DNA from: Rhodothermales bacterium
GTDB taxonomy: Bacteria; Bacteroidota; Rhodothermia; Rhodothermales; JAHQVL01
DNA: 64,000 bases
Assembly (NCBI GenBank): GCA_045106435.1
Contig: JBGCEN010000084.1
Location: 9,231-73,230 of the forward strand
Direction of reading: 5' to 3'
The notes under the pieces: generated by a model
The model's database searches: none
Told to the model about the DNA's origin: nothing
The model's input: the letters and a program-made list of their open reading frames with translations, nothing else
Shown here: one piece after another, positions 16,002-60,766 of the stretch
Numbering within the stretch: the first letter of the stretch is position 1
How the letters are laid out: each line of letters begins with the position of its first letter
Translations under genes and position numbers: made by a program

Positions 16002-16211
16002 CGGGGCTTATAGCAAGAGTTGTTGTGCCTGATACTGTGCTATTCTTCGACAGCAAGCCGGCGAGCAAAACATACTGAGAGCAAAAGTTCTAGGCCTGTG
16101 AAATAACCAACACACCCGGCTTGAAAAATCCGCTGTCTGATGTGAATCTAAACACCGCCTGAAATAAATAACTCTTAAGCCCAATCAAGTGCTTAAGGGT
16201 TTCATTTCATG

Positions 16212-16295
16212 TGCCCGGGACTGGAATCGAACCAGCACGACCTTGCGGTCACCACCCCCTCAAGATGGCGCGTCTACCAATTCCGCCACCCGGGC
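16212..16295 (-). tRNA. tRNA-Leu (anticodon GAG), class II with long variable arm
   Basis: The reverse complement reads gcccgggtggcggaattggtagacgcgccatcTTGAGGGggtggtgaccgcaaggtcgtgctggttcgattccagtcccgggca. Acceptor stem gcccggg/cccgggc. Anticodon loop ttGAGgg. Confidence 0.85.
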
Positions 16296-16375
16296 AAAGG
16301 AGATCCGAATGTCGAATGCCGAGTTCCGAATGAAAAAATTCGATACCCGGCACTCGAAACTCGTCAATCGATTTG

Positions 16376-16448
16376 TGATCCAGCCAGGGTTCGAACCTGG
16401 GACCCTCTGATTAAAAGTCAGATGCTCTACCAGCTGAGCTACTGGATC
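16376..16448 (-). tRNA. tRNA-Lys (anticodon UUU)
   Basis: The reverse complement reads gatccagtagctcagctggtagagcatctgaCTTTTAAtcagagggtcccaggttcgaaccctggctggatca. Acceptor stem gatccag/ctggatc. Anticodon loop cTTTTaa. Confidence 0.85.
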
Positions 16449-58476: not shown

Positions 58477-58615
58477 AATATATCAGACAGGGTATGACAT
58501 TACCGTGTCACTTCTTGTTGTTACCTTTAAAGTGTTGAGTAAATACAGATGGGGAAGCGGGTGTACATGTTCATTGACATTGTGGCTTCTAGTGACCAAT
58601 CGATCTAGATAAGAT

Positions 58616-58654
58616 AAAAAAAATCATGCGCCTGGTTAGCCCAAGAGCATGATT
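58616..58654 (-). terminator. Rho-independent terminator closing the lexA-like operon
   Basis: On the minus strand: aatcatgc ... gcatgatt followed by T8 (plus-strand A run 58616-58623). It lies about 65 nt after the stop at 58717. Confidence 0.7.
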
Positions 58655-58716
58655 CTTTGCTGTTACTGATTGTCAGTGCTGTTAAAGATTGATCGTGCGA
58701 ATGTAGTTATCTGTAA

Positions 58717-58905
58717 TCAGGATTTGCCCTGCCGTTTCTTTCTGGCCGTTTCTCGTTGCCTGTACATCTTCTGGGAGCAGGCTCGCGAGCAATAGTCGCG
58801 TTGGCGTCCAGCGAGTTTGTTCGGGCATTCAGGATTTTTGCAAGGAACGTCTTTTAGTTTACGTGCTGGCTTTCTTCTTTTTTTCGGATTCTTTGGTTTT
58901 TCCAC
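58717..58905 (-). CDS. Small, very basic zinc-ribbon protein, or the C-terminal domain of the upstream ORF reached by a -1 frameshift
   Basis: VEKPKNPKKRRKPARKLKDVPCKNPECPNKLAGRQRDYCSRACSQKMYRQRETARKKRQGKS. Cys pattern C-x4-C...YCS-x2-C followed by Y-R-x-R. The only candidate start is GTG 58905. The frame is open upstream as far as 59007. Confidence 0.55.
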   Translation of the reverse strand: MEKPKNPKKRRKPARKLKDVPCKNPECPNKLAGRQRDYCSRACSQKMYRQRETARKKRQGKS

Positions 58906-58964
58906 AACATCGTCAGCCGGCGATGTGCGGGGACTTACAGAGCTACTAACTGGCCTCTCGCCCT

Positions 58965-59834
58965 TTACTTTTTTTCTTCGATGTAATCTATAAGAGAGCG
59001 AGTGTTTTCATTTTTGCGACCGGTTGTAAGTTGCTTTGGGTTCTCATATTTGGAATTCAAAAACCTGAACCGGGGCTGGGAATTTGCTTTCTTGATAGAC
59101 ACACCAACTTCTTCGAGAAGCAATGGCATTTCTGTCATCGATGATCTCTGAAGGGTTGATTTGGTTCGCCGGCTATCAGACTCTTTCCAGAGCGCTGATA
59201 GTTTTTTCCTCATTACATGCGATCTCAATTTGCGTTTGTTGCGTTGCTCATCAAGATGCATTCTCCTTGTATCAAGTTGCTCTTTGCGCTCTTCAATAGC
59301 AGCCAGATAGGAATACGCTGTGGTATCTCTTTCGGCCATCATGATTGGATCTACACTTTGAATCCAGAAGGCAAAGAAAAACATTAGAGGTGCTGAACTA
59401 GGCAAAATCCATTGGTAATAAATGGAAAGCCAGTCATTCGCAGTACCGGTTTGGGCTTGTGCGAGGATACCAGCCGTGGCATAAAAAAGGGCCAACAAGC
59501 CGGCAAACTTTCCAATGCGAAGCATTTTGCCGACAAGGTGACCTGCTTTCCAGTATTTATAAATAGACCAGAGCATGAGTTCGACGCTCAGGATTCCTAC
59601 GAGCACAAAAATGAAAAAGAGTCCATTTTCTGCTCTGTGCCATGCATTGATGGCATTATGCGCACCCGAATAGAAAAGGAATATGACATGAATCCAATCT
59701 AGCGCCGGCATATCCCGTTTGTTTATGCTAGAAGAGATCGTTGCTTTCCCATTTCGGGCCTGGGCACGAAAAGTTGATTTTACTTGGTTTCCATTGGTGC
59801 CGCTTCGAGCTGTTTTAATAGGGCTTTGTGCCAT
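58965..59834 (-). CDS. Hypothetical membrane protein (4 predicted TM helices) with a long basic coiled-coil C-terminal tail
   Basis: 289-aa ORF starting 24 nt after the lexA-like stop. TM segments WIHVIFLFYSGAHNAINAW, GLFFIFVLVGILSVELMLWSIY, FAGLLALFYATAGILAQA and ILPSSAPLMFFFAFWIQSV. The tail is rich in Arg/Lys/Glu. Confidence 0.65.
   Translation of the reverse strand: MAQSPIKTARSGTNGNQVKSTFRAQARNGKATISSSINKRDMPALDWIHVIFLFYSGAHNAINAWHRAENGLFFIFVLVGILSVELMLWSIYKYWKAGHLVGKMLRIGKFAGLLALFYATAGILAQAQTGTANDWLSIYYQWILPSSAPLMFFFAFWIQSVDPIMMAERDTTAYSYLAAIEERKEQLDTRRMHLDEQRNKRKLRSHVMRKKLSALWKESDSRRTKSTLQRSSMTEMPLLLEEVGVSIKKANSQPRFRFLNSKYENPKQLTTGRKNENTRSLIDYIEEKK
58968..58974 (-). other. Canonical -1 slippery heptamer A_AAA_AAG, in phase and immediately before the stop codon of the 58965..59834 ORF
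   Basis: The minus strand reads gaA AAA AAG TAA, with zero-frame codons AAA AAG (plus-strand T7 at 58969-58975). The -1 frame continues GTA AAG GGC ... with no stop into the 58717..58905 ORF. Confidence 0.5.
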
Positions 59835-59858: not shown

Positions 59859-60554
59859 TCAATTGAGAAACAAGTTGATCTCAGTGATTGACTGTCGGGA
59901 GGAAAACCAGCGGACATCGCCATCGCTGTGGTTTATAACGGCTTCCAGTCTGCCTAGAATCTTGAATGAATCAGACTCACTGACTGGAATATGGATCGTA
60001 TCATACATGGGATTGCTAGGCACCAAACGGAGAAAGCCTGAGTCGCGATAAATCCGCTTCAAGGTTGTCTCCCCATTGACGATGACAGCGCCTATCTGGC
60101 CATCCTGAACTTCTACATTACGCAGCAATACACAGTCGCCATCGTAAATATCGTCTCCAATCATGGAGTCTCCATCCACCTGGAATGCATAAAGCTGGTG
60201 CACATTAGATAGCTTGCCGGCAAAACGAACAAATCCAAGTTCATCTTGAATTGCCTCTTGAAGGTGACCAGCTGTAATGCTGCCCACAATCGCAATGTCC
60301 GTGTAGTCTTTTTGCGAGACAAGTTTGAACCATCCCTGGTTGTCTTTTAGAATATGCCCTTTTTGGTGAAGGGTATCGAATAGTTTGGAAAGGCCATCAG
60401 AAGTAAGCCGGCTAAAATACTCTTTGATTTCGCGTGAAAAAGTATCACGAATGTCCTGTCCACCTTCTGGGGAAGAAAAGCTTAATCCATGTTCTTTTAG
60501 GAGATTAAGAAGAGATTTTTCGTTAGGTGTAAGATTATGTTGTTCGTTTTCCAT
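59859..60554 (-). CDS. lexA: LexA-type transcriptional repressor (S24 self-cleaving peptidase)
   Basis: N-terminal winged-helix-like region (LTPNEKSLLNLLKEHG...LHQKGHILKD). Ala95-Gly96 (VGSITAGHL), Ser130 (DGDSM) and Lys166 (TTLKRIY). The Ala-Gly to Ser spacing of 35 residues matches E. coli LexA (A84/G85, S119, K156). Confidence 0.85.
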   Translation of the reverse strand: MENEQHNLTPNEKSLLNLLKEHGLSFSSPEGGQDIRDTFSREIKEYFSRLTSDGLSKLFDTLHQKGHILKDNQGWFKLVSQKDYTDIAIVGSITAGHLQEAIQDELGFVRFAGKLSNVHQLYAFQVDGDSMIGDDIYDGDCVLLRNVEVQDGQIGAVIVNGETTLKRIYRDSGFLRLVPSNPMYDTIHIPVSESDSFKILGRLEAVINHSDGDVRWFSSRQSITEINLFLN

Positions 60555-60587
60555 GATGATGTTTGAGTAATCTCAATAAGATATTGC

Positions 60588-60620
60588 ACATATAGCATGT
60601 GACATGTGTAATATATGTGT
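60588..60620. promoter_or_regulatory. Nested palindromes upstream of lexA; candidate operator
   Basis: cacatat (60588-60594) pairs with atatgtg (60614-60620). The inner palindrome is catgt-g-acatg (60597-60607). The site lies 34-66 nt upstream of the lexA start, in a divergent promoter region. Confidence 0.4.
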
Positions 60621-60766
60621 TATTCGTTCCTGCGTCAAGTTTAATCTGAAAATTATTTTTCTTTAACCAGGTATGATCCTGTGTTTGAATTTTTAATGGT
60701 CGGTTTATTCTTATAATGGCACTTTATAGGCGTAATTCTTTTCTACTGACTTTCCCCGCCGGTACC

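Follow-up and report, generated by a model that had tools for sequence, protein, structure and literature searches.

The tail assembly chaperone gene of phage lambda (G/GT) is translated with a -1 frameshift: ribosomes shift on the slippery sequence G_GGA_AAG near the end of the upstream open reading frame (ORF), which adds a C-terminal domain to the protein. In G/GT and its analogues in other tailed phages, the two products share their N-terminus and are made in a fixed ratio, and the relation between the frames is kept while the slippery sequence varies. To our knowledge, conserved programmed -1 shifts in non-mobile bacterial genes are few (dnaX, copA, csoS2, and a handful more). In the insertion sequences (IS) of the IS1 and IS3 families, A_AAA_AAG and A_AAA_AAA together make up 72% of the slippery heptamers, and some tetramers, A_AAG and U_UUY among them, serve as well (PMC4066793). 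Here we describe a membrane-protein gene from a Rhodothermales bacterium that probably belongs with these systems. It lies in a stretch of 64,000 nucleotides from contig JBGCEN010000084.1, which we will call the window. The gene ends on A_AAA_AAG, directly before a stop codon, and a small ORF that encodes a zinc ribbon continues in the -1 frame. We put the probability at about 80% that the two ORFs make up a single gene and that a programmed -1 ribosomal frameshift at A_AAA_AAG-TAA yields isoforms of 289 and 372 amino acids. A literature search found no report of frameshifting in this membrane-protein family or in Rhodothermus, and the gene family appears to be unreported.

Two reading frames meet at a slippery heptamer

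The zero-frame ORF (58965..59834; all of the features that we describe are on the minus strand) encodes a protein of 289 amino acids with four predicted transmembrane helices, a long charged helix, and a disordered tail that ends in ..IEEKK*. A protein from a Rhodothermales metagenome-assembled genome (P0001; below, P numbers denote protein homologs and L numbers denote loci) is 100% identical to it. The 3' end of the ORF reads GAT TAC ATC GAA GAA AAA AAG TAA. This includes a run of seven adenines (A7; 58969..58975) and, in phase, the heptamer A_AAA_AAG (58968..58974), whose zero-frame codons are AAA (58971..58973) and AAG (58968..58970). The stop codon TAA (58965..58967) is directly 3' of the heptamer and is a probable enhancer of the shift.

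In a three-frame translation, the -1 frame opens 13 codons 5' of the zero-frame stop, after a TGA (59008..59010). It has no stop codon from 59007 to 58720, contains ...KKVKGERPVSSSVSPRTSPADDVVEKPK..., and closes at another TGA (58717..58719). Reading it through to 58717 gives ..RRKKVKGERPVSSSVSPRTSPADDVVEKPKNPKKRRKPARKLKDVPCKNPECPNKLAGRQRDYCSRACSQKMYRQRETARKKRQGKS*. The extension (58717..58968) has 83 codons plus the stop and comprises a Ser/Pro linker, a basic stretch, and a zinc ribbon. The core of the ribbon is CKNPECPNKLAGRQRDYCSRAC (58777..58842), which is followed by a basic helix and aligns with the C-termini of homologs that have both parts in one frame. The sole ATG, GTG, or TTG in the window's -1 frame before the first cysteine (58842) is the GTG at 58905, which is 62 nucleotides past the zero-frame stop.

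The original prediction, which was made from this DNA alone, had described this arrangement: a 289-amino-acid ORF ending on an in-phase A_AAA_AAG against TAA, a -1 frame that is preceded by a TGA and runs open into a basic zinc-ribbon ORF, and no ATG for that small ORF, only GTG 58905. Our translation bears out each of these statements. The fusion that it proposed (a membrane domain, a linker, and a zinc ribbon in about 370 amino acids) comes to 372 amino acids and is supported by the comparative data below. On its own, the heptamer says little: AAAAAAG occurs 23 times in the 64-kb window and 20.9 copies are expected, so the single-sequence observation carries little statistical weight.

A second in-phase heptamer, C_CCA_AAG, is found at 59034..59040, 22 codons 5' of the stop of the membrane ORF. 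Since the -1 frame is not open at this point, slippage could do no more than truncate the product, and the site may be incidental.

The two parts are joined in some relatives and one base apart in others

We searched for homologs with the conceptual 372-amino-acid fusion as the query and found 72. The four whose source is named are all from metagenome-assembled genomes of Rhodothermales or Bacteroidota. Seven of the 72 (P0018, P0023, P0024, P0026, P0031, P0035, and P0070; 320-336 amino acids) have the same membrane domain and a C-terminal C-x4-C...(Y/F)CSxxC ribbon in a single ORF, and these are the in-frame homologs that align with the window's ribbon motif. The single-ORF fusion was verified on the DNA of four loci (L002, L003, L005, and L017). 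Given these fusions, the two ORFs of the window belong to one and the same protein architecture. In the remaining 65 homologs, the protein ends before the ribbon, and the termini are stereotyped (..KK, ..KKK, ..GK, ..SLT, or ..TPF).

We fetched the DNA of 21 loci, mostly by exact-protein look-ups; scans of genomes and metagenomes gave eight loci. Including the window, 16 loci have the split form. In all 16 of these the ribbon is in the -1 frame and never in the +1 frame (the contig for L016 stops within the ribbon). In 13 of the 16, an in-phase heptamer of the form X_XXY_YYZ lies inside the short overlap of the zero and -1 frames. It is exactly against the zero-frame stop in nine loci and one codon away from it in two more. 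The background for in-phase heptamers in the same ORFs, excluding their last six codons, is about 0.0025 per codon. Judging from these counts, the arrangement of heptamer and stop is far beyond chance once the homologs are considered. Both of the comparative patterns that the original prediction had proposed looking for are thus present: a single fused ORF in some relatives (7 of 72) and a conserved site with an open -1 frame in the others. The contrary pattern that it named (a conserved ATG for the small ORF, with an upstream gene that ends without a slippery motif) was not found in the split loci.

The slippery motif itself varies. A_AAA_AAG is found in the window (gaA AAA AAG TAA), L012 (atA AAA AAG TAA), L014 (gcA AAA AAG TAA), L007 (aaA AAA AAG TAG), and L021 (tcA AAA AAG gag TAG). 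A_AAA_AAA is found in L001 and L009 (both gtA AAA AAA TAA), L010 (ccA AAA AAA TGA), and L019 (ggA AAA AAA, then four codons and TAG). Three loci have G_GGA_AAG: L011 (tcG GGA AAG TGA), L015 (ccG GGA AAG cgg TAG), and L016 (gcG GGA AAG, then five codons and TGA). And L018 has C_CCT_TTT (acC CCT TTT TAG). In E. coli, the classes V_VVA_AAR and H_HHU_UUY give the highest shifting; among tetramers, A_AAG, U_UUC, and U_UUU are the best and U_UUA is weak (PMC4066793). By comparison with those data, the motifs observed in this family belong to the most shift-prone E. coli classes.

In a neighbor-joining tree built from the membrane domain, split forms predominate and are spread over all of its parts, the types of site are clade-specific, and the in-frame forms are nested at at least four places. 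This distribution implies that the requirement for a frameshift is old and has been maintained, while the slippery motif has turned over.

The splits are also reproducible. They come from independent short-read and long-read assemblies, and P0001 and P0002, which are from different assemblies, have the same junction (both end in ..IEEKK). All 17 proteins in the closest clade end in a lysine codon (15 with ..KK, and P0012 and P0015 with ..VK), and none of them is fused.

The -1 frame shows coding constraint

The ribbon ORF is intact wherever the sequence of a locus reaches the ribbon, at identities of 44-80% in the upstream domain. From the DDVV motif to the first cysteine, pairwise comparisons of 4-5 relatives show differences at codon positions 1, 2, and 3 of the -1 frame of 0.30, 0.22, and 0.68. 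The ribbon ORF is clearly under purifying selection, as judged from these substitution patterns.

When we compared the 83-amino-acid -1 peptide to 5.8 billion predicted proteins, we found one separately called ORF (in L010, with an ATG that overlaps the stop). Because the ribbon ORF is nearly absent from the protein databases, the membrane protein is annotated everywhere as its shorter, tail-less product.

A conserved sequence about 30 nucleotides past the stop, GTAAGTCC, might act at the level of the RNA, but a peptide motif (V/I-S/T-P) that is also present in the in-frame homologs is the more likely reason for its conservation.

Alternative explanations

Of the alternatives to ribosomal frameshifting, we first consider transcriptional slippage, in which RNA polymerase adds one A within the A7 run, so that a fraction of the mRNAs encode the fusion in frame. 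One added A would give the same fusion, and A7 is present in the window, L001, L009, L010, and L019 (and A9 in L007). Bacterial RNA polymerases are known to slip productively on A or T runs (reviewed in PMC5009743). But the sites in the rest of the family are too short or are not homopolymers: G_GGA_AAG in L011, L015, and L016, C_CCT_TTT in L018, and A6 in L012, L014, and L021. Since these sites do the same job, transcriptional slippage is not the mechanism of the family. What is conserved is the zero-frame phase of the motif and its adjacency to the stop, which are both ribosomal features, and not a long homopolymer (about 9 or more; the window has A7). We consider transcriptional slippage to be a very unlikely explanation overall, although it may make a minor contribution at the A7 run of the window.

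Another possibility is that these are two independent genes, with the ribbon ORF translated alone, either from GTG 58905 or by termination and reinitiation, and that the heptamer is incidental. Besides the GTG in the window, some other split loci do have possible starts for a separate protein: an ATGA overlap with the stop in L010 and L016, a GTGA overlap in L011, and an ATG 41 nucleotides past the stop in L015. Also, a gene caller reported separate small ORFs in L010 and L015. However, half of the split loci (8 of 16: L001, L007, L008, L012, and L018-L021) have no ATG, GTG, or TTG at all between the opening of the -1 frame and the first cysteine. In the window, GTG 58905 is not preceded by any Shine-Dalgarno-like sequence, and it aligns with GTT, GTT, and GTC in the closest relatives (L001, L009, and L010, respectively), so it is not conserved. 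The -1 codon that overlaps the window's stop is GUA, which is not a start codon. Seven homologs have the two parts fused in frame. Independence would also leave unexplained why, in 9 of the 16 split loci, a canonical heptamer stands directly against the stop. The original prediction had listed two independent genes as a possibility; the eight loci without a start and the constant -1 frame contradict it, and we think it very improbable.

Finally, homopolymer runs are error-prone and mutable and in-frame versions exist in the family, so the split could stem from misassembly of a homopolymer, from a recent frameshift mutation (a pseudogene), or from a phase-variable A-tract, but the first two are excluded by the recurrence in 16 loci from independent assemblies, the identical junctions of P0001 and P0002, and the non-homopolymeric sites, phase variation is unlikely because the frame is constantly -1 across tracts from A6 to A9 and not one of the 17 proteins in the closest clade is a fusion, and the ribbon ORF is intact with coding periodicity at deep divergence, so that we give artefacts of any kind hardly any credence. 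Two of these ideas were in the original prediction, namely a hotspot for slipped-strand mutation and an assembly error; both are at odds with the non-homopolymeric G_GGA_AAG and C_CCT_TTT sites and with a frame that is constant across assemblies.

Points that weigh against a programmed frameshift

Several observations count against programmed ribosomal frameshifting, and we gather them here. First, three of the split loci (L008, L013, and L020) lack a canonical heptamer. Their junctions are tct tta acg TAG (L008 and L013) and tct ttc ggg TAG (L020), which contain in-phase tetramers only (U_UUA or U_UUC, plus A_AAG in L013). These loci and L019 form a clade whose ORFs share the end (T/C)CT TT(A/C) NNG TAG (L008:3697-3711, L013:3347-3361, L019:3347-3361, and L020:3365-3379), with no canonical heptamer there. 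In the zero frame they finish with S/P-L/F-x*, and in the -1 frame the peptide reads (V/T)-F-x-V-(G/A). This shared end suggests slippage of a single tRNA on U_UUA or U_UUC, one codon 5' of the stop.

Second, the loci are phylogenetically related, so our counts exceed the number of independent observations.

Third, the codon periodicity just past the site is weak. In the first 20 codons, the differences at the three positions are 0.25, 0.30, and 0.39 (p ~0.03, from pairs that are not independent). A signal this weak is what a poorly constrained linker would give, but it leaves us here with the weakest point of our argument.

Fourth, there are the possible separate starts in L010, L011, L015, and L016.

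Fifth, the window shows no significant sign of the usual stimulators. The RNA downstream of the site folds with -19.5 kcal/mol, which is not significant (z = -0.54) and agrees with the original prediction's remark that no convincing hairpin is present. There is also no Shine-Dalgarno-like element upstream: the 25 nucleotides 5' of the heptamer (tctcttatagattacatcgaag) contain no GGAGG-like sequence. And RNAalifold, run on nine of the junctions, found no base pairs and no consensus structure.

Sixth, the best heptamers without stimulators give only about 0.3% shifting in E. coli (PMC4066793). With neither a significant structure nor a Shine-Dalgarno-like element in the window, the efficiency could be very low, and the long form may be a minor product.

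What might stimulate the shift

Across the 16 split loci, the 60 nucleotides past the site fold no better than dinucleotide shuffles of the same sequences (mean z = -0.22). When only the first 40 nucleotides are compared to control windows from the same locus, they are more stable in each of the 16 loci than the majority of the controls, with a mean percentile of 0.15 and values of 0.04 or lower in seven loci. In L012, L014, L015, and L018-L021, a hairpin with a folding energy between -13 and -21 kcal/mol starts 3-7 nucleotides past the site. This extra stability is largely due to the local composition, which is G-rich and then C-rich (glycine codons and then Ser-Pro codons). By eye, many loci appear to have a hairpin between these G-rich and C-rich segments, but it overlaps the glycine and Ser-Pro codons, so we did not count it as covariation. 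A structural stimulator is absent or weak in this window. Shine-Dalgarno-like sequences upstream of the site are present only in L015, L018, and (weakly) L010, and are not conserved.

The flanking feature that is common to most of the loci is the zero-frame stop codon beside the heptamer. Shifting is known to rise where a stop codon flanks a slippery run; these are the "shifty stops" that Weiss et al. reportedly described in 1987 (listed in PMC5009743). By this analogy, the adjacent stop is the likeliest main enhancer of the shift. This family would be a tractable system for studying how stop codons tune frameshifting on heptamers.

The proposed mechanism

From the sequence anatomy, the conservation, the in-frame homologs, and the coding constraint, we infer a ribosomal slip that would work as follows. 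Most ribosomes would read ...GAA AAA AAG and terminate at TAA, which would yield the 289-amino-acid membrane protein. A fraction of ribosomes would move back one base on A_AAA_AAG, with the two Lys-tRNAs re-pairing from AAA-AAG to AAA-AAA. The directly adjacent TAA would probably promote this slip by slowing decoding in the A site. The shifted ribosomes would decode GUA (valine) next and continue for 83 codons in total. The 372-amino-acid product would have the same four-helix membrane domain, followed by the Ser/Pro linker and the basic Cys4 zinc ribbon, and the predicted trans-frame junction peptide is ..IEEKKVKGERPV.. / ..DYIEEKKVKGERPVSSSVSPR...

The tRNA that is expected to slip on A_AAA_AAG is tRNA-Lys(UUU); a tRNA-Lys(CUU) would lower the slipperiness at AAG. 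As a side observation, the window includes a gene for tRNA-Lys(UUU) (16375..16448), along with one for tRNA-Leu(GAG) (16211..16295).

Structure and relatives of the two domains

An AlphaFold model of the 372-amino-acid fusion has a mean predicted local distance difference test score (pLDDT) of 77.7. The modelled helices (residues 43-67, 71-97, 103-127, 133-160, and 163-219) have pLDDT values of 88-98. In the model, four hydrophobic helices are followed by a helix of 57 residues and then by a disordered linker, and the C-terminal part is a small ribbon that ends in a basic helix. In the ribbon region (residues 331-370), the pLDDT is 82-92.

Neither ORF matches a family in Pfam, PHROGs, NCBIfam, or PADLOC, and tblastn against collections of phages and plasmids gave no match. 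Foldseek comparison of the fusion model to the Protein Data Bank (PDB) gave no match below E = 0.5. For the ribbon, a sequence search of the PDB raised an A20-type zinc finger, at E = 0.15 only, which we disregarded. The spacing of the family's ribbon (C-x4-C ... YCSxxC and a basic helix) is like that of zf-CGNR (PF11706) and other small Cys4 ribbons with a ..(Y/W)CSxxC..R..YR.R tail. One in-frame homolog, P0018, has a weak and non-significant similarity to zf-CGNR (positions 2-43 of the 44 in the profile; E = 0.39; 11 bits, with a cutoff of 24), and the window's ribbon itself has no match in Pfam. We consider this a faint resemblance only.

The same type of ribbon, CKNPEC..(Y/H)C(S/N)xxC, occurs twice in the unrelated 375-amino-acid protein P0127 and once in the 98-amino-acid protein P0131. 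It therefore seems to be a small mobile domain for which there is no Pfam model. The membrane-protein family is small, with 68 representatives among 1.84 billion proteins (at 50% identity).

An operon with a LexA-like repressor

The first gene of the operon (59859..60554) encodes a LexA-like repressor of 231 amino acids, with a helix-turn-helix and an S24 autoprotease domain (Peptidase_S24 in Pfam, 3.4e-22). Its sequence contains ..TAG.., GDSM, and LKR; a LexA is expected to have an Ala-Gly cleavage site and a Ser/Lys dyad. Its score against the NCBIfam model for lexA (TIGR00498) is 73.9 bits, which is below the cutoff of 110.95, with positions 29-200 of 203 aligned. The membrane gene starts 24 nucleotides past the repressor gene. 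An S24 gene is directly upstream of the membrane gene, in synteny, in 12 homologous loci (L001, L002, L004, L007, L009-L012, L014, and L019-L021), which include the in-frame locus L002. Other genes that recur nearby encode a phosphodiesterase/sulfatase-like protein and an alpha-amylase, and some of the loci also have an LD-carboxypeptidase gene.

Upstream of the repressor gene is a promoter-like site, TTGACG-17-TATATT (60610..60638), which scored 10/12 in a consensus scan and is a consensus match only. It is overlapped by an operator-like element (60587..60619) with the inverted repeat CACATATA (60612..60619) and TATATGTG (60587..60594). The motif ACATATATTACACATGT (60602..60618) overlaps the -10 region of the promoter-like site. 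At up to 3 mismatches, the operator-like motif occurs just once in the 64-kb window. Of 13 homologous loci, 12 have a related A/T-rich motif of the form ACATATAT..ACAT(A/G)T upstream of their S24 gene; in L001, L002, L004, L007, L009-L012, L014, L019, and L020, a ACATATAT-type motif lies about 30-110 nucleotides 5' of the S24 start. This repeat is a candidate operator for a divergent LexA-like repressor.

An intrinsic terminator (58610..58658) follows the ribbon ORF, with the hairpin AAUCAUGC..GCAUGAUU and a run of eight U. It folds with -27.7 kcal/mol (z = -4.73), and none of 200 shuffles was equally stable. (The stem has about 17 pairs, including an inner stem of 5 base pairs. A simple scan missed it, presumably because of single unpaired bases.) Among the sites that the consensus scan listed, no terminator-like one lies between the membrane ORF and the ribbon ORF. 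With a promoter-like and an operator-like site at one end and a single terminator after the ribbon, the unit consists of the promoter/operator, the repressor, the membrane ORF, the ribbon in the -1 frame, and the terminator. In such a layout, inactivation of the repressor would lead to joint production of the two isoforms at a fixed ratio.

Not all family members are beside an S24 gene. At L013:1259-5861, L015:3498-5768, L016:149-1038, and L017, the neighbors are instead of mobile or prophage type (ParA, RHH, RusA, VRR_NUC, DUF2303, YfdP, N6/N4 methyltransferase, and LexA_DNA_bind). The in-frame member L017 is on a viral contig from IMG/VR (IMGVR_UViG_3300030397_000588). The family is thus found in two settings: a chromosomal operon with conserved synteny, and mobile DNA.

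As for function, our low-confidence guess is that this is a membrane protein that is induced by damage or stress under the control of the repressor, and that the long isoform is a minor form with a nucleic-acid-binding tail. It is also conceivable, though we doubt it, that the family has long kept an obligatory -1 shift while swapping motifs (A_AAA_AAR, G_GGA_AAG, C_CCT_TTT, and U_UUN) that mostly stayed next to the zero-frame stop, and that a stop-stimulated shift in a damage-inducible operon would serve as a regulatory sensor instead of merely setting a fixed ratio. If the stop is the main stimulator, then the ratio of the short to the long form would track the speed of termination, and hence release-factor activity or translational stress. 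In Rhodothermales, the locus would be a tractable system for studying the role of a membrane protein that has two isoforms and is encoded downstream of a LexA-like repressor.

Comparison with known frameshifted genes

If we are correct, an ordinary bacterial gene would join the known cases of programmed frameshifting, and it would do so with unusually clear comparative support: the two parts are fused in some relatives and are one base apart in others, with at least four slippery motifs and a stop that usually abuts the motif.

The lambda G/GT slippery sequence, G_GGA_AAG, is identical to that of three homologs of the membrane protein (L011, L015, and L016), and, as in the window, no strong stimulatory structure is evident in G/GT. 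However, there is no relation of sequence or fold between G/GT and the membrane family (which has no match in PHROGs), and G/GT is part of a tail module, whereas the membrane family is mostly chromosomal, in synteny beside a LexA-like repressor.

In the OrfA-OrfAB transposases of the IS1 and IS3 families, the shift joins domains from overlapping zero and -1 frames, as it would here. Yet the membrane family has no features of an IS and no match in Pfam, and it is not a transposase. Also, members of the IS3 family usually rely on a downstream pseudoknot or hairpin.

The tau/gamma gene of E. coli (dnaX) has the identical heptamer, A_AAA_AAG, and a slippage-prone tRNA-Lys, and is a cellular gene with two isoforms, as this gene would be. 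There are three differences. The shift in dnaX truncates the protein, whereas the shift in the window would extend it by 83 residues. In dnaX, there is a Shine-Dalgarno-like element about 10 nucleotides upstream of the heptamer and a stable hairpin about 6 nucleotides downstream, and the window has neither. And in the window, unlike in dnaX, the zero-frame stop abuts the heptamer. Overall, the frameshift mechanism is of a known kind, and its closest analogues are lambda G/GT, OrfAB of IS3, and dnaX.

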